NCBI GenBank assembly: GCA_016719395.1
Contig: JADJZF010000003.1
Coordinates: 303,391 to 327,390, forward strand
Direction: 5' to 3'
DNA from: Candidatus Amarobacter glycogenicus
GTDB taxonomy: Bacteria; Chloroflexota; Dehalococcoidia; Tepidiformales; Tepidiformaceae
DNA length: 24,000 nucleotides
In this document: positions 3,494 to 21,933 of the stretch, one piece after another
Position numbering within the stretch: the first letter of the stretch is position 1
Layout: every line of letters begins with the position of its first letter
The notes under the pieces: generated by a model
What the model saw: the letters and a program-made list of their open reading frames with translations, nothing else
Told to the model about the DNA's origin: nothing
The model's database searches: none
Position numbers and translations under genes: made by a program

Positions 3494-3778
3494 GTGAGGA
3501 CTATCGGCGTCCGTCAACTCAAGAACGAGGCAACCCAGATTGTCCGGACGGTGAAGGAACAGCATGCGCTGTACGTAATCACCGTGAACGGCCAACCGGT
3601 GGCCACCCTGCGGCCATACTCAGACCGTGACATCGCCGGGATGGAGCGCGGGCAAGCCGTTTCCGAACTCCAGGCCATCGAACGCCTGGCGAGCGCCGTC
3701 GGCGAGGCATGGCTGGATGCCGGGTCCGCCGGCGACGGAGAGGAACCCGCGCCGGCCCGCGCGCGGAGGGAGGGCTGA
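3494..3778 (+). CDS. type II antitoxin, Phd/YefM family (partner of VapC)
   Basis: GTG start in frame. The N-terminus VRTIGVRQLKNEATQIVRTVKEQHALYVITVNGQPVATLRPY is the typical Phd/YefM fold signature. Its stop lies 2 nt before the toxin start. Confidence 0.8.
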   Translation: MRTIGVRQLKNEATQIVRTVKEQHALYVITVNGQPVATLRPYSDRDIAGMERGQAVSELQAIERLASAVGEAWLDAGSAGDGEEPAPARARREG

Positions 3779-3780
3779 CC

Positions 3781-4191
3781 GTGGCCACCATCGACTCGAG
3801 TGTCCTTATCTCTCTCTTCAACAGCCGCGACCGGTCGCACGCCCAGACGGTCGCCTGGTTCCGGGAGGCAGTCGCCGACGGCGAACCACTTCGGGCCCCG
3901 GTCACCGCACTCGCCGAAGTTTCGGCCGCCATCGCCGCCGGCACCGGGGAGAAGCAACTCGCCCGGGATGTTGAGACCCACGTCCAGCATTCACCGCTGT
4001 TTGAACTCCTCCCCATCGCACTGCCCCTGGCCGACCGGGCGGCGACACTCGCGGCAGAACACCAGCTGCGGGGGAGTGACGCGATCTACTTTGCGGTCGC
4101 GGAGACGCTCGGCGACACACTCGTAACCCTGAACCCCCGCCAGCTGCAGCGGGGAAGCGCCGTCGTCGAAACACAGCGCCCGAGGGTATAG
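3781..4191 (+). CDS. vapC: type II toxin VapC, PIN-domain ribonuclease
   Basis: GTG at 3781. VATIDSSVLISLF (Asp5), an acidic E around residue 46, and RGSDAIYFAVA (Asp100) follow the PIN pattern. About 136 aa and tightly coupled to the upstream antitoxin. Confidence 0.82.
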   Translation: MATIDSSVLISLFNSRDRSHAQTVAWFREAVADGEPLRAPVTALAEVSAAIAAGTGEKQLARDVETHVQHSPLFELLPIALPLADRAATLAAEHQLRGSDAIYFAVAETLGDTLVTLNPRQLQRGSAVVETQRPRV

Positions 4192-4193
4192 GC

Positions 4194-4946
4194 CTACCTG
4201 AACAGGTCACGCTCGCTATCGCGGATGATCGATTGCATCGTCGCGGTCTCGTCGCGCTCCCAGGGCAGGCCACGGACCACCGCCGCGGGGACGCGTGAGA
4301 GGTTGCCCTTCACGAGTTCGGCTGCGCCCGCCACTTCGTCCGCGGTGCAGAGCGCCTGGACGCGGAACTCATGCCCATGCGGGTCGACCTGACCGATGTA
4401 GCTGAGGATGGGTTGCATGCCGGCGATGCCGATGGCGATGTCCGTTTGTGCTTCCCGCCAGGGCCGCCCAAACGTGTCTGAAATGATGACCGCGACATCG
4501 AGGCCGCGCATTTTCAACTCGGCTCGGACTTTCGCGCAGGATGCGTCCGGGTCGACCGGCAGCAGCACGGCGAGCCCGTGCCCGCCTGAACTCGACTGAT
4601 CGATCCCGGCATTGGCGCAGATGAAGCCGTGGCGCGTCTCCGTGATCATGATCGGGCCGACCTGGCGCACCACACGCCGCGACTCCTGGAGCACCAACTC
4701 GACGACGGCGGCGTCTTTCTCGGTGCGTTCGGCATATTGCTGAGCGAAGGGTGAGACGGCCACGTCTTCCAGCCGGACGACACGGCCTTCAGCCTTCGAA
4801 ACGATCTTCGAGGTAATCACGAGGATGTCACCGGAGGTGAGCGGTGTGCCCGAGGCCGTAGCGGCATCGAAGATGGATGCCGCGAGGTCCGTCCCGGCCG
4901 TGATTTCCGGGAGCCCGTGGATCCCGAAGATAGAAAGTCCTGCCAT
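4194..4946 (-). CDS. cofE: coenzyme F420-0:L-glutamate ligase (CofE/FbiB N-domain family)
   Basis: GDILVITSKIVSKAEGR, ICANAGIDQSS and ISDTFGRPWREAQTDIAIG match the CofE family. The ATG at 4946 is preceded by AAGGAG. Confidence 0.85.
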   Translation of the reverse strand: MAGLSIFGIHGLPEITAGTDLAASIFDAATASGTPLTSGDILVITSKIVSKAEGRVVRLEDVAVSPFAQQYAERTEKDAAVVELVLQESRRVVRQVGPIMITETRHGFICANAGIDQSSSGGHGLAVLLPVDPDASCAKVRAELKMRGLDVAVIISDTFGRPWREAQTDIAIGIAGMQPILSYIGQVDPHGHEFRVQALCTADEVAGAAELVKGNLSRVPAAVVRGLPWERDETATMQSIIRDSERDLFR

Positions 4947-4986
4947 GGCGAGCTCCTTGTTCCGTCCCGGCGAATGGCGAGCTCCT

Positions 4987-5637
4987 TTAGAGCCCAACGA
5001 TGCGGATTGAAGACTGGGTCTTGTGCTTTCGGTTCAGGTTAATGAGGAGTGACGTCAGCATCTCGACGTAACGGCTCTGAGAGGGCCCGCCGGCATCGAT
5101 CCCGCGGACGCCCTCGATCTGGTTGGCCAACCCGATGACCAACTGCTTCGCTTCGGCATCGCGGCCGCAGACCAGGACATCGGCCTCGATCTGGTGATCG
5201 AGATGTTGCAGCTCCTCGGCGCTCATGTTCTGGAAAGCCGAGACGACGCGGCTAGCGGGCAGCTGCGCGATGGCTTCCTGGAGCGCGCTGCTGCCGGCGA
5301 CGTTGAGCGCGACCGCGCCGACCCCCTGCTGGAACTCCAGGGGAGCGACCACGTTGCAGACGAGTTTGCCTGCGAGGGCGCCCGAAAGCGCGTCCAGCGT
5401 CGCCTGCTGTCCGCTGTAGGGAAAGGTGAGAAAGACGACATCGGCATCGCCAACAACTGAAGCGTTATCGCCGCCCGAGGCGACGGCGCCAGGCACGGTT
5501 TCGCGGATCCGCTCGGCGCCCTCTTCACCGCGCTCAGCCGAACGCGAACCGATAGCGACTTCGTGGCCGGCCTTCGCAAAGCGCATGGCGAGCCCGAGGC
5601 CCTCCGGGCCAGTACCGCCGACAAACGCAAGCTTCAT
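4987..5637 (-). CDS. npdG: NADPH-dependent F420 reductase
   Basis: MKLAFVGGTGPEGLGLAMRFAKAGHEVAIGSRS is a Rossmann N-terminus. The 216-aa length and the C-terminal ...NLNRKHK... resemble NpdG/Fno. It lies directly upstream of cofE on the same strand. Confidence 0.82.
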   Translation of the reverse strand: MKLAFVGGTGPEGLGLAMRFAKAGHEVAIGSRSAERGEEGAERIRETVPGAVASGGDNASVVGDADVVFLTFPYSGQQATLDALSGALAGKLVCNVVAPLEFQQGVGAVALNVAGSSALQEAIAQLPASRVVSAFQNMSAEELQHLDHQIEADVLVCGRDAEAKQLVIGLANQIEGVRGIDAGGPSQSRYVEMLTSLLINLNRKHKTQSSIRIVGL

Positions 5638-8936: not shown

Positions 8937-10013
8937 CTAGAGCCGCTGGCCGGTCCCTGGGTCGAAGAGGTAGGCGGAACTCAGGGAAGGTTTTAACACC
9001 ACAGTCTCGCCCACGCGTACGAGGCACGCCGGGTCGAGCCGCGCGGTCACATCGCCCGAACCGGTCTCAGCCGTCACGAAGAGGTCGCTACCGTGCGGTT
9101 CTACGAGCCGCACTTCGCCCGCGAGACCGCCGCCACCGGTTGCGGGTTGCCGGTCAAACTGCTCGGGGCGAATTCCCAGCAGGACCGGACCGGGCTTCAG
9201 GTCCGTAGGGACACTGTCAGCCGGGAGCGGCATGGTGAAGCTCTTGCTGACGAACGCTACTGACTCACCCAGGTACACGATTTCGCCCGGGATGAGGTTC
9301 ATCGCCGGGCTGCCGATGAATGTCGCGACGAACGCATTCGCCGGCCTGTCGTAAAGCTCCTGGGGCGGGGCAACCTGCTGAAGCAGGCCGTCCTTCAGGA
9401 CTGCGATGCGTGTGCCCATCGTCATCGCTTCCACCTGATCGTGAGTCACGTAGATCACCGTGGCTTCGAGCCGCCGATGGAGCGCGCTGATCTCCGCCCG
9501 CATCTTGAGCCGCAACTGGGCGTCGAGGTTGCTGAGCGGTTCATCCATCAGGAAGGCGCTCGGACGGCGCACGATGGCGCGCCCCAGTGCGACTCGTTGA
9601 CGTTGGCCACCTGAGAGTTCGCGCGGCTTGCGTTCCAACAGTCCGCCGATGGCGAGCATCTCGGCCGCCTGTACTACCCGTGCCTTGATCTCCTCGCGCG
9701 ATGTCTTCCGCTGCTTCAAGCCGAACGCCAGGTTGTCGTAGACGGTCATGTGCGGGTAGAGGGCGTAGCTCTGGAAGACCATCGCGATGTCTCGCTGGGA
9801 AGGCTCAACGAAAGTCACATCGCGGCCACCGATGGATATGACGCCGGAGGTCGGCGTTTCGAGACCCGCCACCATGCGCAGGGCAGTGGTCTTGCCGCAC
9901 CCGGACGGCCCAACAAGCACGAGGAACTCCCCCTCAGCCACATCGAGACTGAGATTATCGACGGCGCGGACGTTGCCAAAGTGCTTGCTCACCGAATCAA
10001 TTTCAACCGTCAT
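8937..10013 (-). CDS. ABC transporter ATP-binding protein, MalK/UgpC/MsiK-like (CUT1 family)
   Basis: Walker A GPSGCGKTT, signature LSGGQRQR, Walker B FLMDEPLSNLD, and a C-terminal MalK-type regulatory/TOBE-like extension. Confidence 0.9.
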   Translation of the reverse strand: MTVEIDSVSKHFGNVRAVDNLSLDVAEGEFLVLVGPSGCGKTTALRMVAGLETPTSGVISIGGRDVTFVEPSQRDIAMVFQSYALYPHMTVYDNLAFGLKQRKTSREEIKARVVQAAEMLAIGGLLERKPRELSGGQRQRVALGRAIVRRPSAFLMDEPLSNLDAQLRLKMRAEISALHRRLEATVIYVTHDQVEAMTMGTRIAVLKDGLLQQVAPPQELYDRPANAFVATFIGSPAMNLIPGEIVYLGESVAFVSKSFTMPLPADSVPTDLKPGPVLLGIRPEQFDRQPATGGGGLAGEVRLVEPHGSDLFVTAETGSGDVTARLDPACLVRVGETVVLKPSLSSAYLFDPGTGQRL

Positions 10014-10035
10014 TCCGTTACTCCACGCAGGAAAG

Positions 10036-10067
10036 AAGGGGCGGGCGGAGGGGGGAGCCCGCCCCTT
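10036..10067 (-). other. intercistronic GC-rich stem-loop between the binding-protein gene and the ATPase gene
   Basis: Perfect 11-bp stem AAGGGGCGGGC / GCCCGCCCCTT with a 10-nt loop, lying in the 71-nt gap between the stop at 10085 and the start at 10013. Confidence 0.5.
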
Positions 10068-10084
10068 GGACCGAAAGCCGAAGG

Positions 10085-11473
10085 TCAGGCCTTCAGCTTC
10101 GGCTTCACATCGTTCTCATAGGCCTTTTCGAGCTCCTTTTTCACGTCGGGCCAGACGTTCTTGGCGTCTTCGTTGTTGAGGATCATGCGCTCAAGGCCCT
10201 TGCCAAGGATGGCGTCGCCGCCGGGGATGTAGACGCGCGCGGAGTCCTGCGGCTGAGTTTTTGCGAGCTGGTCGATGGCTGTCTTGAACTGAGGCTTCGA
10301 CTTGAGGAACTCGGCCATCGGCCCGGTGACCGCCGACTTCCGCACCGGCATGTAACCCACGTTCTGGGAGTAGTAGGCGGTGTTTTCGGGCTCGGTGATG
10401 AACTTGATGAAGGTCATCGCCGCGACCTTGTTGGCGTCCGGGACAGCCTCAGGGATGCCGAGCCCGGCGCCGCCCGTCGGACAGCCGAACTTCGTCTTCT
10501 CCGGGTAGAAGGCGGTCCCCACTTCGAATTTCGCGTCCCGGAGGACGCCGGCGAGGCCGCCCGTGGACGACAGCATCGAGGCCGTGGTACCGGCGACGAA
10601 GTCAGCTGTCTCGCTGTTCGCAGTCACGTTCGCGTACTTCTTCGAAAAGACCTGGCTCCGGACGTAGTTGCCGGCGTCGATCGCCTGTTGAGAATCGAGG
10701 AGCATCTTGAACTGCTCATCGCTGTAGCGGCCACCAAACTGCCAGATGATGCCTTGAAAGGTCCATGCGGCGTAGCTGTCACCCTTCACGTGGGTGAAGG
10801 CGTACTCGTTTGCACCGGCTTTGGCCTGGAGCTTCGCTCCCCACTCATCCATCTCGTCCCAAGTTTTCGGGCCGCGATCCGGGAGGCCGGCCGCCGACCA
10901 CTTCTGCTTGTTGTAGTAGAAGAGGGGCGTGGAACGGGCGAACGGCATGGCCCACTGTTTTCCGTCGTACTGATAGTCCTTGAAGAGCGTGTCCTGATAG
11001 TCCGCCGTCTCGACTTTAAGCTCCTTCAAGAGGTCATCCATCGGCGTGATCGTCTTGGCGAGGAAGTACTTGAACCACCAGACATCGGAGAGCATGACGA
11101 CGTCGGGGATCTGTTTCGCTGCCAGGCCGGCATTGAACTTCTGGGACACTTCGGCGTAGTTGGCGCCGGCGGTTTCGAGTTTGACCTTAATGTCCGGGTT
11201 CTTGGCCTCGAAGCGCTTGATCAGCTCTTCTTCCACAGCCTTGGAATTGGCCGGATGGACGCTCCAGAAGGTGATCTGGGCGGCCGGCTTCACGCCGCCG
11301 AACTTCGTGGTCGTCGCCGGGCTGGCCGAATTGCCGGCCGTCGAAGCTGGCCCGGTGGTCGCCGGGTCCCCGCCGGTGGTGTCGTCATCGTCATCGCCGC
11401 CGCAGCCGACGAGGCCCAAAGCCGCAGCTCCGCCGGCCATGCCGAGGAGGTGCCTTCTCGTGAGTTTGGACAT
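10085..11473 (-). CDS. ABC transporter extracellular solute-binding lipoprotein (family 1, sugar/glycerol-phosphate type)
   Basis: Start moved to the ATG at 11473. MSKLTRRHLLGMAGGAAALGLVGCGG has a twin-arginine-like n-region plus a lipobox Cys, followed by an Asp/Thr-rich linker. The body resembles family-1 SBPs. Confidence 0.85.
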   Translation of the reverse strand: MSKLTRRHLLGMAGGAAALGLVGCGGDDDDDTTGGDPATTGPASTAGNSASPATTTKFGGVKPAAQITFWSVHPANSKAVEEELIKRFEAKNPDIKVKLETAGANYAEVSQKFNAGLAAKQIPDVVMLSDVWWFKYFLAKTITPMDDLLKELKVETADYQDTLFKDYQYDGKQWAMPFARSTPLFYYNKQKWSAAGLPDRGPKTWDEMDEWGAKLQAKAGANEYAFTHVKGDSYAAWTFQGIIWQFGGRYSDEQFKMLLDSQQAIDAGNYVRSQVFSKKYANVTANSETADFVAGTTASMLSSTGGLAGVLRDAKFEVGTAFYPEKTKFGCPTGGAGLGIPEAVPDANKVAAMTFIKFITEPENTAYYSQNVGYMPVRKSAVTGPMAEFLKSKPQFKTAIDQLAKTQPQDSARVYIPGGDAILGKGLERMILNNEDAKNVWPDVKKELEKAYENDVKPKLKA

Positions 11474-11529
11474 GAAAGTACTCCGTTCCCCTGTTTCGAA
11501 TTGCCTGTGTACCGCCACCAGGGCGGGAA

Positions 11530-12417
11530 TCACCCTTTCACGGACCCGGCCGTCAGGCCCTCCACGATGTGCCTCTGGGCCCACACAAAGAGCGCCAGGA
11601 CCGGCACGATGACGAGCACCGCTCCCGCCATCACCACGCCCCACTGCGTTTGGCCCTCCGAGTTCTGCAACTGCTGCAGACCGAGGGGCAGCGTGCGCAC
11701 CGTGTCATCGGTAGCGATGAGCAGCGGCCAGACGTAGTCGTTCCACTTCTCCACCACCGTGATGAGAACAAATGCGACCAGCGTCGGCCGCGACATCGGA
11801 AGGACGACGCTCCAGAGCATCCGCAAATTGCCCGCACCATCCATCCGCGCGGCCTCGATGACCTCGCGCGGGAGGGTGAGGAAGTGCTGGCGCATGAGGA
11901 ACGTGCCGAAGGCAACGCCCCCGCCCGGGATGATGATCCCCTGGTAGCTGTTTACCCAGCCGAGTTCCGAGACCAGGACGTAGTTGGGGATGAGCGTGAC
12001 CTGTTCCGGCACCATCAGCGCGGCGAGGATGCCCAGGAAGATCAGGTTCTTCTTCGGGAAGTCGAGGAACACCAGCGCGTAGGCAGTCAGCACCCCGTTG
12101 GTTACCTTCAGAAGACTCCCGAGCGACGTCGTGACGATGCTGTTCACGAAGTAACGCTCGAACGGCACGGCGGTCCACGCCTGTCTGAAGTTCTCCCAGG
12201 CGTACGTCTCCGGAAGCCAGGAAATTGGGAGCGTATAGATCTCCTGGCGAGTCTTCACCGATGCCGTCAGCATCCAGAAGAGCGGGGCGCAGATCAGGAG
12301 GACGACGCCGGCCACCAGCGCGTACTGCACCGCTAATCCCAGCCACGACTGCCAGGGCATCCGGCGAGAGCGGGCGGCGCCGGCGGGAAGCGGCTGCCGG
12401 TTGATCACTGTCATCAC
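11530..12417 (-). CDS. ABC transporter permease (MalG/UgpE-like)
   Basis: Six-TM protein with the EAA loop EVIEAARMDGAGNLRMLWSVVLPMSRP. Confidence 0.9.
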   Translation of the reverse strand: MMTVINRQPLPAGAARSRRMPWQSWLGLAVQYALVAGVVLLICAPLFWMLTASVKTRQEIYTLPISWLPETYAWENFRQAWTAVPFERYFVNSIVTTSLGSLLKVTNGVLTAYALVFLDFPKKNLIFLGILAALMVPEQVTLIPNYVLVSELGWVNSYQGIIIPGGGVAFGTFLMRQHFLTLPREVIEAARMDGAGNLRMLWSVVLPMSRPTLVAFVLITVVEKWNDYVWPLLIATDDTVRTLPLGLQQLQNSEGQTQWGVVMAGAVLVIVPVLALFVWAQRHIVEGLTAGSVKG

Positions 12418-12424
12418 TCGACCC

Positions 12425-13333
12425 TCATGAGTAGTGCACCCGTCGTTCGAGGAACCGCACCTGCAGCACCGTTACAACGAGCAGGAAGACGAACAGCACC
12501 GTGGCCACGGTCGACGCTGCCCCTACGCGGTAGTTCACGAATCCCTGCTCGTAAACCTGGTAGACCATCGTCTTGGTGGAGTCGAGCGGGCCGCCCTGAG
12601 TCATCACCCGGATGATGTCGAACGCCTGCATCGAACCCAGGATGCTTGTGACCAGCAAGAAGAACGTGACTGGAGAGAGATGCGGCAGGGTGATCCGGCG
12701 GAACCGTGTGAACGACCCGGCGCCATCGACCCGGGCGGCCTCGTACAGTTCGCGCGGGATTGTCTGGAGCCCGGCGAGGTACACGACGACCGCGTAGCCA
12801 AGGTTCCGCCACGTGTAGACGATGATGACCATCGGCATGGCGTAGTTCGGGTCGTTGTACCAGTTCGGCGATGCGATTCCGAGCCGATCGAGGATTGCTG
12901 CGACCAGCCCGAAACGCGGGTCGAAGACGAAGAGCCAGACGATGCCGATGGCCGCCCCGCTGACCACGTAGGGCGCAAAGAGCACCGTGCGCGCAGCGTC
13001 CCTGCCCCGGAGCCTCCGGTTCAGCAGGAGAGCAAGCATCAACCCGAACACCAGCGTCGAGCAAACGGTCGCGAAAGTGAATACAAACGTGTTGCGAATG
13101 ATGTAGCGGTCAGTTTCGTCCGAGAAATAGTCGGTGTAGTTGTCCATCCCAACCCACGTCTTGGTGGGTGAAATCAAGTCCCAGTTGTAGAACGAAAGAC
13201 GGAATGTTTCGAGGAGTGGTTTGTAGGTGAAAAGCACGAGCAGGACGAGGTTCGGTGAAACGAACGCCAGGAATAGCACCCACTCTTTCCAGGGCAGTTT
13301 TCGCACTCGGCGTCCTGGGATGACGTGTTGCAC
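12425..13333 (-). CDS. ABC transporter permease (MalF/UgpA-like)
   Basis: Multi-TM protein with the EAA loop ELYEAARVDGAGSFTRFRRITLPHLSP. It is the first gene of the minus-strand operon. Confidence 0.9.
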   Translation of the reverse strand: MQHVIPGRRVRKLPWKEWVLFLAFVSPNLVLLVLFTYKPLLETFRLSFYNWDLISPTKTWVGMDNYTDYFSDETDRYIIRNTFVFTFATVCSTLVFGLMLALLLNRRLRGRDAARTVLFAPYVVSGAAIGIVWLFVFDPRFGLVAAILDRLGIASPNWYNDPNYAMPMVIIVYTWRNLGYAVVVYLAGLQTIPRELYEAARVDGAGSFTRFRRITLPHLSPVTFFLLVTSILGSMQAFDIIRVMTQGGPLDSTKTMVYQVYEQGFVNYRVGAASTVATVLFVFLLVVTVLQVRFLERRVHYS

Positions 13334-14512: not shown

Positions 14513-14687
14513 AGTGCCACTCGTGATGAGAACCATGGCTTCGGCGCTTTCAGCGCGGGGGGCCGGCGCGGGCGGGGCCGACCAGGCGAACACCTGGCAT
14601 CGTTGAACTCGGCGTTGTGCATTGTCCAATCGTAGAGGGAGCGGTGTGGTGGGCGGTAATCTTCACGTTATGGCTCTCCACATTTTA

Positions 14688-14705
14688 GAACGTTTGTTCT
14701 ATACT
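14688..14705 (+). promoter_or_regulatory. LexA (Cheo-type) SOS box GAACGTTTGTTC abutting a TATACT -10 hexamer, upstream of imuB
   Basis: GAAC-N4-GTTC at 14688-14699 and TATACT at 14700-14705. The ATG follows only 10 nt later with no SD, which implies a near-leaderless mRNA. The same composite is found upstream of dnaE2. Confidence 0.75.
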
Positions 14706-14715
14706 CCCAGATCCC

Positions 14716-15996
14716 ATGGACGTGGCCTGCCTCATCGTGCCGAACTTCCTCGTGGCGCTGGCCCGCCGCGAACATCCCGAGCTGGCGAAACGCCCGGTGG
14801 TGGTTGGCGGCGCCCCGGAAGAGCACGCGGCAGTGACCGCCTGTTCGCCCGAAGCCGCGGCTGCCGGCGTCACCGTGGGGACGACGCTCCGCCGGGCGCT
14901 GGCGCTCTGTTCGGACGCCGTCTTCCTCCCGCTGCAGGAGGGGTTTGCGCGCGCCGAAGCCCAGGTCCTCGCCGAACTCGTTCGCAACCGCAGCCCGCTG
15001 GTCGAATCCGTGGGCCCGGGGCACCTGCACTTCGAAGTCCGTGGCCTCCCCCGCCTGGCGGGCCTCAGTGACGAGGAGTACCTGGAGCAGTTCCAGGAGA
15101 GCATTGCCGCGCGCACCCGCCTGCCGGTGCACCTGGGCGCAGCAGTGAGCGTGTTCGCAGCCCATGTGGCAGCGCTCAAGCCCTCACCTCCAGGCCCCCT
15201 TCCCCAGGCTCGGGAACGAGGGAGCAACCTGCGCGCCGCGAAATCAATCGTCAATCCACAATCCACAATCCGAAATTGGACGCTTGTACCGGGCGCGAGC
15301 GAGCGGGAGTTTCTCGCAACGGCACCCGTGGATGTGTTGCCTGTGGACCCGGTTATGCACCTGCGGCTGCGGCTATTTGGGCTGGAGTGGCTGGGCCAGG
15401 TGGCAGAGATACCCATTTCGGCGATGCAGGCGCAGTTCGGGGCAGATGGCACGCGGGCAAGGGGCCTCGCGCGGGGAGAAGACCACTCGCGCATTGTCCC
15501 GGAGCGGGAAGAAATACGCGTGACCGAGGAGATCGAACTGCCGGCTCCCGCCGCCACCAGCGAACCACTGGTGGCGGGCACCGAGGCACTCCTCCAGCGG
15601 GCTCTCGGGCATGCGGATGTGCGCGGGCAGACGGTCCGGCGGGTCGATTGGTGGCTCGCACTGGAGAGCGGCGAGCAGGTCACCCGGCGGGTGGTCTTTC
15701 GCGAACCCACAAGCGATGTGCGCCGGATGGTCTTCGTCCTCCGCGGGAAGATCGAACGACTCGCACTCGATTCCGCAGCCGTCGGCCTGGGCGTTGCGCT
15801 CTCCGGCCTCTGCAGCGAATACGCCCACCAGGGAAACCTCTGGCAGCTTGGCCCGCGTCGCCAGCGCGAACTCGACGACGCAATCGAACAACTGAACACG
15901 CGAGCCGGCGAACCACAGGTCTACCGCGTCGTGGAGGTCCAACCATGGTCGAGAATCCCCGAACGGCAGGTGGCACTGGTGGCCTACGGCTCCTGA
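14716..15996 (+). CDS. imuB: ImuB-like inactive Y-family DNA polymerase (core domains; C-terminal domain is out of frame downstream)
   Basis: Y-family fold pattern, but the catalytic acidic residues are replaced. IVPNF stands in place of DMDxFF, and VGPGHLHFEV in place of SLDEAYLDV. A clamp-motif-like QGNLWQ and an ...RIPERQ... segment lie near the end. Confidence 0.8.
   Translation: MDVACLIVPNFLVALARREHPELAKRPVVVGGAPEEHAAVTACSPEAAAAGVTVGTTLRRALALCSDAVFLPLQEGFARAEAQVLAELVRNRSPLVESVGPGHLHFEVRGLPRLAGLSDEEYLEQFQESIAARTRLPVHLGAAVSVFAAHVAALKPSPPGPLPQARERGSNLRAAKSIVNPQSTIRNWTLVPGASEREFLATAPVDVLPVDPVMHLRLRLFGLEWLGQVAEIPISAMQAQFGADGTRARGLARGEDHSRIVPEREEIRVTEEIELPAPAATSEPLVAGTEALLQRALGHADVRGQTVRRVDWWLALESGEQVTRRVVFREPTSDVRRMVFVLRGKIERLALDSAAVGLGVALSGLCSEYAHQGNLWQLGPRRQRELDDAIEQLNTRAGEPQVYRVVEVQPWSRIPERQVALVAYGS
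15180..15272. repeat. GC-rich palindromic element inserted in frame in imuB, ending in four tandem heptamers CAATCGT/CAATCCA/CAATCCA/CAATCCG
   Basis: Starts with GCCCTCACC...GCCCCC...GGGAACGAGGGAG...TCAATCGT. It encodes the low-complexity segment PSPPGPLPQARERGSN... A related copy lies at 21431-21503. Confidence 0.45.
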
Positions 15997-16274
15997 ACCA
16001 GCCGAAACCGGCCGCGGTGGAAGCAAATGCACATGGCGAGCCGGACGCTGTCGTTGTCCAGGGCCGCTTCCAGCGCGTCCGCGCTATCCAGGATAGCTGG
16101 CGAATCGACGACGAGTGGTGGCGCGAAGAGATCGCCCGCCGCTACTTCGCTGTCGAACTCGAAAACGGCCGCAAACTCACCGTCTACCACGACCTCGTCG
16201 GCGGCGGCTGGTTCGCCCAGGCGTACGACGGACCGCAGCCGGCGAAAGGCACTCCCAACAAGCGCCGCGACTGA
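15945..16274 (+). CDS. ImuB C-terminal domain, encoded in the -1 frame relative to the imuB core (separate small protein or frameshifted tail)
   Basis: LRLLNQPKPAAVEA...DSWRIDDEWWREEIARRYFAVELENGRKLTVYHDLVGGGWFAQAYDG resembles the conserved RLL..P.P / ERI..EWW / RDYY.VE..G / WFLHG C-terminus of ImuB proteins (from memory). The ATG at 15945 has GGAGG 7 nt upstream. Confidence 0.6.
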   Translation: MVENPRTAGGTGGLRLLNQPKPAAVEANAHGEPDAVVVQGRFQRVRAIQDSWRIDDEWWREEIARRYFAVELENGRKLTVYHDLVGGGWFAQAYDGPQPAKGTPNKRRD

Positions 16275-16326
16275 TCGTAAGCTTCGGTGGCTTCGTACCT
16301 GTATCACCACCACGGGAGAACCCCCT

Positions 16327-17088
16327 TTGAATCGCACCATCCCGGTCACCGAGGCCCAGGCGAAACGTCTGCGCCGGTACAACGCTCTGATGGGCCTCCT
16401 CCACGCCGGGCAGGGTATCGTCATCCTCCTGCTCGCAAACGGCTTCGTCCTCCCCGTGACAAGCACATTCATGGAGGGGCCGCCTGGCACCGAGAGCGCA
16501 CTCCGCCACCTGTTCGATGTCCGCATCGCCCTGGGCGTGGCGGCGTTCGTGTTCATCTCCGCGGCCGCGCACTGGCTGGTCGCCGGGCCGTTCTACGGCT
16601 GGTACGTGGCGAACCTCCGCGAGCAGCGGAACTATGCCCGCTGGGTGGAGTACTCGGTGAGCGCCTCGGTGATGATCGTCCTCATCGCGATGCTCACCGG
16701 GATCAGCGAGATCGCGGCGCTCATCGGACTGTTCGCAGCGAACGCCGCCATGATCCTCTTTGGGCTCGCGATGGAACACTACGAGCAGCCTGGCCGCCCG
16801 AACTGGCTGATGTTCTGGTTCGGATGCCTCTTTGGCGCGGTCCCCTGGCTGGCGGTCGGCATCTACGTCTGGAGCCCGGGGCTCGCTGCCGAGCCTCCAG
16901 CTTTCGTCTACGGGATATTCGTCTCGCTTTTCATCTTCTTCAACTGTTTCGCCCTCAACATGTGGTTGCAGTACCGGCGCATCGGGCCGTGGCGGAACTA
17001 CCTGTTCGGAGAATCTGTCTACATCTTCCTCAGCCTCACGGCGAAGTCCGCCCTCGCCTGGCAGGTGTTCGCCTCGACACTCGTTTAG
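16327..17088 (+). CDS. heliorhodopsin (retinal-binding, inverted-topology 7-TM photoreceptor)
   Basis: 253 aa from the TTG at 16327, with GGGAG 8 nt upstream. Strong resemblance throughout to HeR 48C12: RWVEYSVSASVMIVLIA (counterion Glu108), FWFGC..G.VPW, FVYGI.VSLF.FFN.FAL and SLTAKSALAWQ (Schiff-base Lys240). Confidence 0.9.
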   Translation: MNRTIPVTEAQAKRLRRYNALMGLLHAGQGIVILLLANGFVLPVTSTFMEGPPGTESALRHLFDVRIALGVAAFVFISAAAHWLVAGPFYGWYVANLREQRNYARWVEYSVSASVMIVLIAMLTGISEIAALIGLFAANAAMILFGLAMEHYEQPGRPNWLMFWFGCLFGAVPWLAVGIYVWSPGLAAEPPAFVYGIFVSLFIFFNCFALNMWLQYRRIGPWRNYLFGESVYIFLSLTAKSALAWQVFASTLV

Positions 17089-17118: not shown

Positions 17119-18303
17119 ATGGACTACCAACAGCTGCTTGCCGACCGTACTCGCCTGATGGAGGCGAGCGTCATCCGAGAAATCCTGAAGGTCGCTTCGT
17201 CCCCCGGGATGATTTCACTGGCCGGGGGCCTCCCGGCCGCCGAGAGCTTCCCGCTGGAGATCATGGAAGAGCTCATGGGCGCCGTCCTCGGCAAGTACGG
17301 GAGCAAAGCCCTCCAGTACGACGCCAGCGAGGGCTGGGGCCCGCTCCGCGAAGCGCTCGTCCCTCACCTGGCCGCCCGCGGCGTGACCACCACCGCTGAC
17401 GGTGTCCTGATCATGAGCGGCTCGCAGAGCCTGCTCGACGGGATCGGGAAGATCCTCATTTCACCCGGTGATTATGTCGCAGTGGAAGCACCGACTTATC
17501 TCGGCGCCCTCCAGGCATTCAACCCGTACGAACCGCGCTACCTCGAAATCGAGACAGACGACGGCGGGCTCATTCCCGAATCGCTTGAACGTGTCCTTTC
17601 GGGCCAGCGCGTGAAGCTGGTGTACCTCGTCCCGACATTCCAGAACCCCACGGGCCGCACGCTTTCGCTGGCGCGGCGGAAACAGGTGGCCGACATCCTG
17701 AAACGTCACGACACCCTCCTGCTGGAGGACGACCCTTACAGCGACCTCCGTTACTCGGGCGAACGCGTCCCCCCGATCAAGTCGCTCGCGCCGGAGCACG
17801 TGGTCTATTCAACCACGCTCTCAAAGACGTTCGCGCCCGGGCTACGGATCGGGGTTTGCATCGCCCCGGAGTTCATCCAACGCTGGCTCGTGACGGCCCG
17901 GCAGGGCGTCGACCTCCATACGAACACGCTCGCGCAGGCGCTGGCAGCCGAATACCTGACCGGCGGATATCTCGATCGGCAGCTTCCCAGGATCATCGAG
18001 CTTTACGCGCCCCGCCAACTGGCGATGCTCGATGCACTCGAACGCCATATGCCTGAAGACTTCACCTGGTCCCACCCGGAAGGCGGCATGTTCGTCTGGG
18101 TCGAAGGACCGAAGGGGTTCGATGCCGTAGAACTCCAGCGACGCGTGCTCGAACACGGCGTCGCCTTCGTGCCGGGGCGGTACTTCTACGTGAACGAAGA
18201 GGAGGGTGCGGCGACCCTGCGGATGAACTTCACTGCCGCGGATGCCGCAACGATCGAGCACGCGGTAGGAGTCATTGCCGACGTGATGGCAGAGATGCTC
18301 TAG
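17119..18303 (+). CDS. PLP-dependent aminotransferase, class I (2-aminoadipate/LysN-like family)
   Basis: IREILK...ISLAGGLP, QYDASEGWGPLREAL, PTFQNPTG, and LSKTFAPGLRIG carrying the PLP lysine. 394 aa. Confidence 0.85.
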   Translation: MDYQQLLADRTRLMEASVIREILKVASSPGMISLAGGLPAAESFPLEIMEELMGAVLGKYGSKALQYDASEGWGPLREALVPHLAARGVTTTADGVLIMSGSQSLLDGIGKILISPGDYVAVEAPTYLGALQAFNPYEPRYLEIETDDGGLIPESLERVLSGQRVKLVYLVPTFQNPTGRTLSLARRKQVADILKRHDTLLLEDDPYSDLRYSGERVPPIKSLAPEHVVYSTTLSKTFAPGLRIGVCIAPEFIQRWLVTARQGVDLHTNTLAQALAAEYLTGGYLDRQLPRIIELYAPRQLAMLDALERHMPEDFTWSHPEGGMFVWVEGPKGFDAVELQRRVLEHGVAFVPGRYFYVNEEEGAATLRMNFTAADAATIEHAVGVIADVMAEML

Positions 18304-18335: not shown

Positions 18336-20090
18336 CTAACCGAAATCGTGTGAATCCATCTTCTCAATATGCCCTGGTAATGGGCAGGCATGGAACTCCT
18401 CTGCGATGATGTTCGGGAAGCCGCTCTGCTCGTTATCGATGCGGCCGCGGACGATGACGAAGGGCGTGCCACGGACGAGTTCGCGCCGGCGCTCCTGAAG
18501 CGGCGTGTACACGACGAGATTCGCGAGCCCGAACTCGTCTTCCAGCAGCATGAACATCACGCCACTCGCCGTGGATGGCCGTTGCCGCGTTACCACCATG
18601 CCGGCCATTTCGACCATCATCCCCTGGGGCATGCGGTTCGGGTTGTGGACCCCGCCAAGGTGGCGGCTGGTTATCATCCCTTCGTGGAGGAGCGGCCGGA
18701 CGAGTTGCATCGGGTGGTTGCCGGGGCTGAGGCCGAGTTTCTCCACATCCCATGCGAGTGAAAGCCAGGGCGTGAGTGGCGGCAGTTCGACCATGTCCTG
18801 CTCGGTGGGGAGGGCGAGGGCGAGTTGCTCTTTCAGCCCCTTCCGGCTTCTCACATGCGAGGGGGCGGCGCGCACTTCAGTGAGAAGCCCCAGCTGCCAG
18901 AGGAGTTCGCGCCGTGGCAGGCCGAACTCTTCCATGGCGCCTGCGCGGATGAGCGTTTCGGCCTGCTCGCGCGAGATATGCGCGCGTACCAGCAGGTCGC
19001 GCAGCGAGACGTACGGGCCATTTGCCTCGCGCTCGGCGACGATCTGGTCCGGGGTAGTAGCGTAAGCCGGGTCGCGGTGATGCTGGCGGATGTCCTGCCA
19101 ACCGCCGCCGAGGCCTTTCACCTGCTGCAGTCCCAGGCGGATATCCCCGTTTTCCGGCCAGGCGCCGGCCCGGCTGGCGTTGATCGAAGGCGGCAGCGTC
19201 TGGATACCGTGCCGGCCCGCATCCTGAGTGAGCACTTCGACCGAGTAGAAGCCCATCGGCTGGGCATTGAAGAGCGAGCAGTAGTAGGCGGCAGGATAGT
19301 GGTAGCGCAGCCAGGTGGACTCATATGCGAGGAGGGCAAAAGCCACCGCATGGCTCTTCGGGAAACCGAAGGCCGCGAACGCCGCCATCTTGTCGAAGGC
19401 TACTTTGGCGGCAGCGCGGCTCAATCCCTGGCGATCGGTGCCGGCATAGAACTCCTCGGCGAGCGCCTGCATCGCCTCGGATGAGCGCTTCCGGCTCATC
19501 GCCCGGCGGAGCTTATCGGCCTGTCCCGGAGTGAATCCTGCGACTGACGTCGCAATCTGGAGCACCTGGTCCTGGTAGAGCACATGCCCGAGCGTTTCGC
19601 CCAGGCACCAGGCGAGCTTTGGAGCCAGTTCCGGATGACCGTAGTCCACCTCGACGTGTTCACCGCGGGCGAGGGCCTCGCGGTAGTGCATATAGGGCCG
19701 GAAGGCACCCGCCATGATTGGCCCCGGACGGATGATCGCCACCTGCACGGCGAGGTCATCAAGGTTTCGCGGCTGTGTCCGCGGCAGCGTCTGCACCTGT
19801 GCCCGGCTCTCGATCTGAAAGACACCCATCGTGTCGCCCTCCCGGATTGAGTCGTAGATCTCCGGGCTGTCATGGGGGATACGCCCAAGGTCGACTCGTA
19901 TGCCATGCACCTCTTCGATGATGTCGAGACACTCATCGACCGCTGAAAGCATGCCGAGTGCGAGGAAGTCAATCTTCACGAAGCGTGCATCATCGGCCGA
20001 ATCCTTATCCCACTGGCAGACAAAGCGACCATCCATGCGCGCCGGCTCGATGGGCACAACCGAAGACAGGGTCTCTGCCGAGATGATCAC
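18336..20090 (-). CDS. dnaE2: error-prone DNA polymerase DnaE2/ImuC, C-terminal fragment (frame continues upstream to about 20120 without a start codon)
   Basis: Contains CQWDKDSADDARFVKIDFLALGMLS, GVFQIESRAQ, FGFPKSHAVAFA, the OB-fold region and a terminal ...SHDFG. These are the Pol III alpha palm, fingers and OB domains. Confidence 0.85.
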   Translation of the reverse strand: MIISAETLSSVVPIEPARMDGRFVCQWDKDSADDARFVKIDFLALGMLSAVDECLDIIEEVHGIRVDLGRIPHDSPEIYDSIREGDTMGVFQIESRAQVQTLPRTQPRNLDDLAVQVAIIRPGPIMAGAFRPYMHYREALARGEHVEVDYGHPELAPKLAWCLGETLGHVLYQDQVLQIATSVAGFTPGQADKLRRAMSRKRSSEAMQALAEEFYAGTDRQGLSRAAAKVAFDKMAAFAAFGFPKSHAVAFALLAYESTWLRYHYPAAYYCSLFNAQPMGFYSVEVLTQDAGRHGIQTLPPSINASRAGAWPENGDIRLGLQQVKGLGGGWQDIRQHHRDPAYATTPDQIVAEREANGPYVSLRDLLVRAHISREQAETLIRAGAMEEFGLPRRELLWQLGLLTEVRAAPSHVRSRKGLKEQLALALPTEQDMVELPPLTPWLSLAWDVEKLGLSPGNHPMQLVRPLLHEGMITSRHLGGVHNPNRMPQGMMVEMAGMVVTRQRPSTASGVMFMLLEDEFGLANLVVYTPLQERRRELVRGTPFVIVRGRIDNEQSGFPNIIAEEFHACPLPGHIEKMDSHDFG

Positions 20091-21718
20091 GCCGCCGACG
20101 TGCTGGCCGATGTGACGGGGAAGCCCGCTGCCTGCCCGGCCAGCTCCACCATGTCGCGCCAGATTGGTGCGTCGATGAGCTGGCGGAGTTCTGGCACACG
20201 TTTCATCTCCTCTGCGATATCGGTTGCGTTGGCGAAGTGGCCGCCGAATTTGTTGAGTTTCGCCAGGACCGGCAACGGCAGGCCGAGGGCCTTCCCAATA
20301 TCCAGTACCGCGCTGCGAAAGCGGTATGTCGGGAAGGCGGCGACAATCGCCGCGTGCTCGTCTCCGTAGCGGTCGTAGATCCGCTGGAGCACCTGGTCGC
20401 GGATGTCACGCGGGAAGTCCAGGTCGATATCCGGGAGCGAGTGGAGCTCCTCGTTGAGGAAGCGCTCGAGGTAGAGGTTGTTGCGTACCGGGTCGATGTG
20501 GGAAAGCCCGATGAGGTAGCAGACGATTGAACTGACTGAAGAGCCTCGGCCCCGGCCGACCGGGCGTTCGTCTGGCTGGAGGCGCGGATCGCGCCCGCGG
20601 ACTTCGACGGCGATCTCATTTACGAGCAGGAGAATGTCCCAGTAGACCAGGAAGAAGCCGGCGAGCCCGTGCTTCGCTATCAGTGTCAGTTCGCGTTCGA
20701 GACGTTCGCGCGCCTCCTTCTGGAAGGGGTCGGTCGCCGGGTACTTGCGCCGGAAGGCTGGTCCGCAAATGCCGCGCAAATGACTGTCGAGCGTGGCTCC
20801 TTCAGGAACGGGGTAGTCCGGCAGGCGATAGGGAAGGTCACGCGTGAGATCGAACCGGCAGCGCTCCGCGATGGCGAGCGTGTTCTCAATCGCCTGCGGG
20901 TAACGCTCGAAACGGCGTGCCATCCCTGCGGCCGGCTTCAGGAAGAACTCCGAGTTGGGCCTTCGCACCTGGTGCGAACTATCGAGCGTCTGCCGATGGC
21001 GGACGGCGACCAGCACATCGTTCAGGCGGTGACGGGTGCGCACGTGGTAGTGGACGTTGTTCGTTGCCACCGTCTCGATTCCCAATTGCTCGGCCAGGCT
21101 CGCGAGGGCGGCAACCCGCTCCGTATCGCCGAAAACATCGTGGTGCTGAAGTTCGATGTAGTAGCGGTCGCCGAAGATGGCACGATAAGCCGTGGCCAAC
21201 TCCATCGCGGCACTATGCGACGACGACGCAACGGAGGGGTCGCTGAGGCGGACGAGTTCGGAATCTCGGCAGCCAGAAAGGACGATGAGGCCTTCGTTCA
21301 GCTCGAACAGCCACTCACGTTCGACGAGCGGGGTGTCTTTCCCGTGCACCTGGTAGGCGCGGCTGAGCAAACGGCAGAGGTTGCGGTAGCCGGTGACATC
21401 CATCGCGAGGATGGTCAGGTGAGTGGTCGGGCCCTCACCCCCCGCCCCCCTCTCCGGACTTCCTGCGGTCGCGGGAGAGGGGGAGTATCCAATCGTGATT
21501 TCCGCTCCGGTGATCGGCTTCAGCCCACGCTCGTTCGCAGACTTTGCGAACTCCATCGCGCCATAGAGGTTGTCGTGGTCGGTGAGGGCGAGGGCGGGAT
21601 AGCCCAACTGCAACGCGCGGTCGATCAGCTCATCGGTGGCGCTGGCGCCTTCGCGCGGGGACCAGCAGGAGTGTGCATGGAGTTCGACGTAGTTGGAGGA
21701 ATGCCGGGTGGCGTTCAT
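20087..21718 (-). CDS. dnaE2: error-prone DNA polymerase DnaE2/ImuC, N-terminal fragment (PHP domain and palm with PDIDLDF)
   Basis: The ATG at 21718 gives MNATRHSSNYVELHAHSCWS (PHP domain). It has the catalytic LPDIDLDFP and ends ...ELAGQAAGFP, then runs out of frame to a stop at 20087. Confidence 0.85.
   Translation of the reverse strand: MNATRHSSNYVELHAHSCWSPREGASATDELIDRALQLGYPALALTDHDNLYGAMEFAKSANERGLKPITGAEITIGYSPSPATAGSPERGAGGEGPTTHLTILAMDVTGYRNLCRLLSRAYQVHGKDTPLVEREWLFELNEGLIVLSGCRDSELVRLSDPSVASSSHSAAMELATAYRAIFGDRYYIELQHHDVFGDTERVAALASLAEQLGIETVATNNVHYHVRTRHRLNDVLVAVRHRQTLDSSHQVRRPNSEFFLKPAAGMARRFERYPQAIENTLAIAERCRFDLTRDLPYRLPDYPVPEGATLDSHLRGICGPAFRRKYPATDPFQKEARERLERELTLIAKHGLAGFFLVYWDILLLVNEIAVEVRGRDPRLQPDERPVGRGRGSSVSSIVCYLIGLSHIDPVRNNLYLERFLNEELHSLPDIDLDFPRDIRDQVLQRIYDRYGDEHAAIVAAFPTYRFRSAVLDIGKALGLPLPVLAKLNKFGGHFANATDIAEEMKRVPELRQLIDAPIWRDMVELAGQAAGFPVTSASTSAA
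21431..21503. repeat. GC-rich palindromic element inserted in frame in the dnaE2 PHP domain
   Basis: GCCCTCACC..., then a 10-bp perfect stem CCCCCTCTCC (21446-21455) / GGAGAGGGGG (21474-21483), then ...CCAATCGTGA. It encodes SPSPATAGSPERGAGGEG and is related to 15180-15272. Confidence 0.45.
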
Positions 21719-21724
21719 GGGCCG

Positions 21725-21742
21725 AGTATAGAACATTTGTTC
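21725..21742 (-). promoter_or_regulatory. LexA (Cheo-type) SOS box GAACAAATGTTC abutting a TATACT -10 hexamer, upstream of dnaE2
   Basis: The minus strand reads GAACAAATGTTC TATACT CGGCCC ATG. The box is at 21731-21742 and the -10 at 21725-21730. Only 6 nt separate it from the ATG at 21718, which suggests a leaderless mRNA. Confidence 0.75.
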
Positions 21743-21933
21743 GCTTTGGTGTCTTGGGCCCGGGCCAGCCCCGCTCTTTCGACTGTCCACCTGATCATCA
21801 CGGAGCAGTAATCGGTCGGCGTCCTGAACGTTCGCAATGCGGGCCTTGCCACCCGCGATCGGGGATTTCCCTGTTGCACGCAGCAGAGGGAAAGGACTAC
21901 AGTGCAAGTCCACTTCACAGTTGGAATGACATT

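Follow-up and report, generated by a model that had tools for sequence, protein, structure and literature searches.

Heliorhodopsins have been reported to be absent from diderms, their hosts being monoderm prokaryotes (10.1101/356287, PMC8612252). Two members with solved structures are 48C12 from a freshwater actinobacterial fosmid (PDB 6su3, 6su4, 6uh3) and TaHeR from the Thermoplasmatales archaeon SG8-52-1 (PDB 6is6, 7u55). Previous work has expressed and characterised heliorhodopsins of Chloroflexi, those of Dehalococcoidia among them (10.1101/2021.02.16.431466). The cellular role of the family is largely open, and three partners have been shown experimentally, namely a glutamine synthetase for AbHeR, a photolyase for TfHeR and the ATP-binding cassette (ABC) transporter OmrDE for OcHeR (PMC9529153, PMC9769723, PMC11109279). 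In our study we analysed a heliorhodopsin gene (HeR) located in a stretch of 24,000 nucleotides from Candidatus Amarobacter glycogenicus (contig JADJZF010000003.1), the whole of which is called the window. Very probably, HeR is a canonical heliorhodopsin acting as a photosensor that pumps no ions and controls a partner protein, and it would be co-transcribed with the following aminotransferase gene from a motif resembling promoters used by sigma factors of the extracytoplasmic function (ECF) type. This reading is based on the observed family membership, residues, topology signal, gene order and motif conservation.

The open reading frame (ORF) 16327–17088 is a genuine, intact and canonical heliorhodopsin gene of a monoderm member of the Chloroflexota (Dehalococcoidia/Tepidiformales-like). 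The gene, its putative ribosome binding site and the codons of its chromophore-site residues are located as follows; related loci compared with the window carry the labels L001 to L091.

16327–17088, + strand: coding sequence of HeR, 253 codons, TTG start (conserved in L001, too), TAG stop, no internal stops
16314–16318, + strand: Shine-Dalgarno-like GGGAG, 8 nt ahead of the TTG at 16327, read from the sequence and kept in L001
16402–16404, + strand: His26 (H23 of 48C12) in LLHAGQ
16570–16572, + strand: His82 (H80 of 48C12) in AAAHWLV
16648–16650, + strand, GAG: Glu108, Schiff-base counterion in helix C (E107 of 48C12), in RWVEYS
17044–17046, + strand, AAG: Lys240, Schiff-base lysine in helix G (K241 of 48C12), in SLTAKSALAWQ, invariant in 40 homologues

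HeR matched the Pfam family PF18761 (Heliorhodopsin) over the whole model (positions 1–242 of 242) with 326.5 bits (E = 1.2e-97) and the NCBIfam equivalog NF038020 'heliorhodopsin HeR' (positions 1–244 of 244) with 313.6 bits. Both scores are far above the family cut-offs of 26.7 and 100 bits, respectively. Full-length matches to solved structures were obtained for 48C12 (6su3, 6uh3; E = 1.3e-72; 51% identity at 245 aligned positions) and TaHeR (6is6; E = 2.9e-64), the latter being an archaeal homologue of the same fold that is more distant from HeR than 48C12. The original prediction had read the ORF as a full-length heliorhodopsin alignable with 48C12 and had named a family profile search and an alignment to both characterised proteins as suitable checks. 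The prediction was borne out by these analyses, with the chromophore-site residues in register. The codon positions it gave for Lys240 and Glu108 are exact, as are the two histidines it called conserved. Each of the four sequence motifs listed above was found once in HeR, and the only lysines of the protein are K13 and K240.

The residues called structurally important by Kovalev et al. 2020 (PMC7049168) were mapped onto HeR by alignment to 48C12. About 30 of them are kept, the exceptions being Q213 and D127, which are replaced by M212 and E128. Identical (48C12 numbering) are the Schiff-base stabilisers S237, E107, S111, S76 and K241, whose serines correspond to S236, S112 and S78 in HeR, and the cavity residues H23, H80, N101, Y108, N16, E230, R104 and Y92 (H26, H82, N102, Y109, N19, E229, R105 and Y93 in HeR). 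The same applies for the hydrophobic barrier (L12, L96, L227), the Glu149 region (E149, Q216, Y226, W105), the surface clusters (Q26, S242, W246, Q247, S201), the pocket residues (M141, I142, F206, F72, M115), the prolines P40 and P172 and the dimer residue Y179. S236 stands at the second carboxylate position of type-1 rhodopsins, and E108 is the single Glu counterion. In an alignment of 40 homologues with 65–94% identity, 82 columns were invariant, and the mapped important positions were invariant or nearly so. HeR thus shares with 48C12 a similar length, the lysine, the Glu counterion, the His pair, the Ser cluster, the cavity, the barrier and the prolines, but differs from it in the two replaced residues, in host phylum and in genomic context. 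HULAa30F3, one of the known Chloroflexi/Dehalococcoidia heliorhodopsins, lacks the two conserved histidines (10.1101/2021.02.16.431466), whereas HeR keeps both, and a typical photocycle is expected for this reason.

Met212 (codon 16960–16962), which stands beside the beta-ionone ring in place of Gln213 of 48C12, is nearly invariant in the clade of HeR. Variation of Q213 has been called frequent in heliorhodopsins (PMC7049168). A colour-tuning difference from 48C12 is possible at this position.

An AlphaFold2 model of HeR (pLDDT 75.9) comprises seven helices (residues 9–37, 67–86, 103–123, 129–152, 160–182, 192–217 and 225–252) and a beta hairpin in the AB loop (strands 42–48 and 58–65). Its ten best matches in the PDB were all heliorhodopsins (TM-score 0.67–0.73) with 48C12 as the best one (0.73), and type-1 rhodopsins were found only at E > 0.01. 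The loops on the N-terminal side contain 12 lysine and arginine residues compared to 2 on the opposite side. According to the positive-inside rule, this signature points to an inverted topology with a cytoplasmic N-terminus.

The frame 16327–17088 is taken as the coding frame because of its high GC content at third codon positions (0.878, compared to 0.61 and 0.46 in overlapping alternative ORFs). A longer ORF starting with the ATG at 16027 (353 aa) was discarded, because its extension is of low complexity (rich in S, T, A and R) and overlaps, in a different frame, the preceding 85-aa gene, and because homologues have a length of 250–265 aa. The identical protein is likewise predicted at 253 aa by gene callers.

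The HeR protein is an uncharacterised member of a well-known family, and its exact sequence is already public. At least 24 public contigs encode the identical protein; NCBI assemblies GCA_016708155.1 and GCA_016704105.1 are among the sources, and the DNA of the window is about 99.3% identical to the contigs carrying it. Among 8000 candidates scored, at least 7351 proteins matched at E <= 1e-20, and relatives with 80% identity already carry the name "heliorhodopsin HeR [Tepidiformaceae bacterium]". The nearest loci and genomes are metagenome-assembled genomes of Dehalococcoidia/Tepidiformales (Tepidiformaceae). The host therefore fits the monoderm rule, and the Chloroflexi and Dehalococcoidia heliorhodopsins of databases and literature belong to the same phylum.

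Upstream of HeR we detected a conserved bipartite element, which became visible by aligning the 5' regions of HeR genes from seven lineages (TGATC[G/C]-N16-CGTA).

16272–16297, + strand: bipartite promoter-like motif TGATCG-N16-CGTA, 29 nt before the HeR start, the sole occurrence in the window on both strands

Both blocks of the motif are invariant, and no column of the spacer is. The 85-aa gene lying upstream ends with the TGA of the first block as its stop codon. In the window and the de-duplicated loci (together about 1.4 Mb), 8 of the 10 exact occurrences lie immediately upstream of HeR; the other two precede ORFs without a Pfam family and look like chance matches. If one mismatch is allowed in the first block, the motif is present at most 250 nt upstream of HeR in 7 of 80 loci, compared to 0.76 expected hits. 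About six lineages have the motif conserved. L085 is one of them, and since a different gene lies upstream of HeR in L085, the motif travels with HeR.

The consensus of promoters recognised by the sigmaE/ChrR system (ECF11), TGATCC-N16-CGTA with TGATCC as -35 and CGTA as -10 element, is known from Pseudomonas syringae and Shewanella; this regulon responds to singlet oxygen or oxidative stress, and genes for photolyase and bacteriophytochrome belong to it (PMC5507510, PMC4336711). The system has been described in alpha- and gamma-proteobacteria (PMC6852236). The motif of the window agrees with the consensus in 9 of the 10 specified bases and has the same 16-nt spacing, and the motifs of L006 and L007 agree in 10 of 10, although the consensus is proteobacterial and our host belongs to the Chloroflexota. 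Like the light-related genes of the sigmaE/ChrR regulon, HeR is a gene connected with light, and it is preceded by such a motif. TGATCG-N16-CGTA would act as the HeR promoter, and we take its resemblance to ECF11 promoters as a lead rather than as an assignment. A sigma-70 promoter was not called in the 52-nt gap upstream of HeR. No cognate sigma or anti-sigma gene was identified in the approximately 24 kb of the genome covered by the window. A literature search returned nothing relevant linking heliorhodopsin to DnaE2, LexA, ImuB, SOS, ECF or sigma factors.

HeR is embedded in a group of genes with a function in DNA damage tolerance and is followed by an aminotransferase gene.

14688–14699, no strand assigned: perfect GAAC-N4-GTTC box of the LexA/Cheo type, overlapping a promoter-like -35/-10 pair at 14677–14705, 16 nt ahead of the imuB ATG
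14716–15996, + strand: imuB, ImuB-like Y-family polymerase homologue, 426 aa (Pfam IMS, E = 2.4e-22; NCBIfam Pol IV models below cut-off)
16017–16274, + strand: 85-aa gene with a weak match to DUF6504 (20.2 bits, under the cut-off of 24.2)
17119–18303, + strand: class I/II pyridoxal phosphate-dependent aminotransferase, 394 aa (Pfam PF00155), 30 nt 3' of HeR
18336–21718, - strand, start ATG 21718: dnaE2, error-prone DNA polymerase (NCBIfam PRK05672, 548 and 373 bits for its two halves), convergent with HeR and the aminotransferase gene
21731–21742, no strand assigned: perfect GAAC-N4-GTTC box, 12 nt in front of the dnaE2 ATG

The complete gene order of the window is FtsH, the ribosomal proteins L21, L27 and L31, a sugar-type ABC transporter (-), DUF1385 (+), imuB (+), the 85-aa gene (+), HeR (+), the aminotransferase (+), dnaE2 (-), unannotated ORFs and a tag glycosylase (-). 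On one strand, imuB is followed by the 85-aa gene after 20 nt, by HeR after a further 52 nt and by the aminotransferase gene after another 30 nt, and no terminator-like site was predicted in any of these gaps. Two terminator-like matches on the + strand inside HeR (16526 and 16911) are weak and not more numerous than in shuffled sequences. Because of the 30-nt gap and the lack of a terminator, HeR and the aminotransferase gene probably form one transcription unit, which would be driven by the ECF-type motif. The closest solved structures of the aminotransferase are PH0207 (1x0m), the multiple-substrate aminotransferase 1wst and the 2-aminoadipate aminotransferase LysN (2egy), and the enzyme is assigned to the broad-specificity 2-aminoadipate/kynurenine/aromatic group.

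The two boxes are the only perfect GAAC-N4-GTTC palindromes of the window. We take them to be LexA operators after the SOS box of Gram-positive bacteria and Dehalococcoides; the literature search found no paper supporting GAAC-N4-GTTC as LexA operator of Dehalococcoidia. With a rate of 0.013 per kb in 1.28 Mb of related DNA, about 0.3 boxes would be expected in the window. The box in front of imuB is kept in L003/L088, L081–L083, L089 and L090, the one in front of dnaE2 in L001, L003/L088, L081/L082 and L089. The promoters of imuB (14677–14716) and dnaE2 (21718–21745) are built alike, AGAAC-N4-GTTC being directly followed by TATACT, about 10 nt and the ATG. This shared layout suggests co-regulation and very short leaders. 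In relatives, imuB adjoins dnaE2. With an ImuB homologue of the Y family and a DnaE2 polymerase, each behind a putative LexA operator, the two genes fit a LexA-regulated mutagenesis cassette. Direct control of HeR by LexA was rejected: none of the 80 related loci has a perfect box in the 400 nt preceding HeR, and the region 15990–16340 contains no box with at most one mismatch.

To examine how far this arrangement is conserved, all proteins of the window were compared by tblastn with 80 related HeR loci, and targeted look-ups of the closest metagenomic relatives followed. Neighbours of the window type were found in only three of the 80 loci (L001, L003 and L049). The look-ups added L089, L090 and L091 (HeR identities of 78%, 83% and 79%), in which the order imuB, small ORF, HeR and aminotransferase, facing dnaE2, is present as well. 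The pair of HeR and aminotransferase recurs in L001, L003/L088, L089, L090 and L091. L088/L003 (79%) have imuB set apart from the pair by a DUF6582 gene and two genes on the opposite strand. In L049 (65%), HeR is convergent with a contiguous operon of imuB, DUF6504 and dnaE2. L085 (Tepidiformaceae, 80%) carries HeR directly after DUF1385, and imuB, aminotransferase and dnaE2 are all absent from this locus. A general link of HeR with imuB, dnaE2 or the aminotransferase was rejected on these counts, and the gene arrangement of the window is clade-specific. The synteny of L21, L27, L31 and DUF1385 is conserved, too, and for this reason mere adjacency lends little support to a functional link.

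The commonest gene directly 3' of HeR, found in 18–19 of 66 related loci, encodes a CarH/LitR-like MerR regulator with a B12-binding domain. It consists of HTH_17, B12-binding_2 and B12-binding domains, and its gene frequently overlaps the stop codon of HeR (gap 0 or -3). The gene is located at about 10750–11610 in L039, L041, L044, L051, L055, L058–L060, L064, L066, L072, L074, L079 and others. This light-responsive regulator corresponds to the published 'MerR' neighbour group and is absent from the window. A threonyl-tRNA-synthetase-like gene (tRNA-synt_2b, tRNA_SAD and HGTP_anticodon) directly follows HeR in L004, L006, L007, L011 and L013. Other genes in this position were DegV (3 loci) and DUF2867/NmrA (4 loci).

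The 85-aa DUF6504-like gene always accompanies imuB and lies between imuB and dnaE2 in L049 (15592–15744). Its product may be an accessory, ImuA-like mutasome subunit in these Chloroflexota. In the window, dnaE2 falls into the overlapping ORFs 20087–21913 and 18336–20090, because a run of G at about 20116 has lost 1 nt relative to the 99% identical contig L082, where the gene is intact (1127 aa). The probable cause is an error of assembly or in the homopolymer, or else a frameshift at strain level. The sugar-type ABC transporter (8937–13333, - strand) comprises four genes encoding a MalK-like ATPase, a solute-binding protein and two permeases. It sits between L21-L27-L31 and DUF1385 and looks like a lineage-specific insertion, since it is absent from this position in L085 and L089. 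In the regions at about 3500–4191 and 4194–5637, a pair of a Phd/YefM-like antitoxin and a PIN-domain toxin adjoins two F420-related genes, the F420-0:gamma-glutamyl ligase CofE and an F420-dependent NADP oxidoreductase.

In the mechanism we propose, HeR would span the membrane with seven helices and have a cytoplasmic N-terminus. It would bind all-trans retinal via a protonated Schiff base at Lys240, for which Glu108 would serve as the counterion, while Ser236, Ser112 and Ser78 would stabilise it. Upon photoisomerisation, the proton of the Schiff base would move into a water-filled cavity lined by His26, His82, Asn102, Tyr109, Glu229 and Arg105. A long-lived signalling state would follow, and no ions would be pumped. 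Retinal binding, photocycle and absence of transport are carried over here from the family. As in other heliorhodopsins, HeR would then alter the activity of a bound partner protein. For promoter activity and for the identity of the partner we rely on the motif and on gene order, and the aminotransferase is the leading, though tentative, candidate by analogy with the heliorhodopsin acting on glutamine synthetase. Comparable to the operons of AbHeR, TfHeR and OcHeR, HeR is closely followed on the same strand by the gene of a soluble enzyme, and its neighbourhood also holds genes for DNA damage. In contrast to these operons, aminotransferase, ImuB and DnaE2 are outside the ten published groups of recurrent neighbours (PMC11109279).

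Several observations weigh against the photosensor reading as a whole. The AlphaFold2 model is only moderately confident (pLDDT 75.9), L088/L003 lack the motif, and the motif is read as ECF-type by analogy with proteobacterial sigmaE/ChrR promoters. The aminotransferase gene directly follows HeR in only 2 of 65 related loci (3 of 66 with the window), and the pairing, being absent from the 80% identical L085, may be inherited synteny rather than a functional link. Finally, none of the annotated genes of the 24-kb window, to which this search was confined, is a retinal-synthesis, carotenoid or blh gene, as the original prediction had already stated. If retinal were wanting, HeR would be made but be inactive as a photoreceptor, as an apo-opsin or relic. 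The rarity of blh in genomes with heliorhodopsin as the only rhodopsin would agree with this, but blh is rare near HeR genes as well (10.1101/2021.02.16.431466), so that its absence from the window is typical and not special. Furthermore, all chromophore-site residues are strictly conserved in the 40 homologues, and another, still unknown retinal route or an uptake of retinal has been proposed (10.1101/2021.02.16.431466). We regard an inactive HeR as very unlikely. A function as light-gated proton transporter like the viral V2HeR3, for which proton transport has been shown (PMC9448325), or as a light-driven enzyme of lipid remodelling or of anion chemistry in the Schiff-base cavity, as speculated (PMC7049168; 10.1101/2021.02.16.431466), appears highly improbable. 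HeR is close to 48C12 and TaHeR, which show no transport according to the family literature, and it shares all cavity and barrier residues of 48C12. The viral proteins form the most divergent subfamily (PMC7049168).

Two further explanations concern the neighbouring genes. HeR might be a light-dependent regulator specifically of the aminotransferase. In its signalling state it would attach to the enzyme at the membrane and alter its activity, in analogy to AbHeR and glutamine synthetase, and amino-acid or nitrogen metabolism would thus be tied to light. The gene lies 30–55 nt after HeR on the same strand in six lineages (HeR identities of 78–93%) with no terminator-like site in between, it encodes a broad-specificity transaminase of the 2-aminoadipate/kynurenine/aromatic type, and a heliorhodopsin regulating an adjacent enzyme of nitrogen metabolism is known (PMC9529153). 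The pairing is, however, restricted to one narrow clade excluding L085, it was not detected beside more distant HeRs, and it does not belong to the recurrent neighbour groups (PMC11109279). As the rest of the neighbourhood is syntenic too, the adjacency may be inherited, and we consider this specific role rather doubtful. Alternatively, HeR might be part of the DNA damage response, linking the sensing of sunlight to translesion synthesis or repair in a similar way as a heliorhodopsin aids photolyase. Transcription starting at the LexA-box promoter of imuB might run on across the 20-nt and 52-nt gaps into HeR, which would then be induced together with imuB. The boxes directly ahead of imuB and dnaE2 exceed the expected number and are conserved in relatives, six lineages have HeR placed between the two SOS units, the more distant L049 has it beside the contiguous operon, and links of heliorhodopsins to photolyase or UV repair have been published (PMC9769723; PMC8612252). 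But HeR has its own conserved promoter-like motif and no LexA-type box within the 400 nt upstream in any of the 80 loci, and 75 of these 80 loci lack neighbours of the imuB and dnaE2 kind. In L088 the two opposite-strand genes part imuB from HeR, and L085 has HeR without imuB or dnaE2. Induction as part of the damage response is therefore unlikely in our view. Similarly improbable is an extended form of this idea, according to which HeR belongs to a dedicated sunlight-stress programme: a singlet-oxygen-type ECF promoter would control HeR between the two LexA units of the ImuB/DnaE2 mutasome, and light would modulate the aminotransferase or the damage-tolerance machinery.

The photosensor with an ECF-type promoter motif remains our preferred reading of HeR. 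The protein itself adds little to the family, as one more canonical heliorhodopsin that is recognisable by standard annotation. The motif and the placement of the gene in an SOS mutasome locus are undescribed in the literature searched, and this context is of modest importance. The conserved pair of HeR and aminotransferase in such a locus suggests candidate partners beyond the ten published neighbour groups. If the sunlight-stress programme were true, it would represent a new class of heliorhodopsin partners and the first regulatory circuit controlling HeR expression. The conserved motif could reveal which sigma factor, and hence which stress, switches a heliorhodopsin on.

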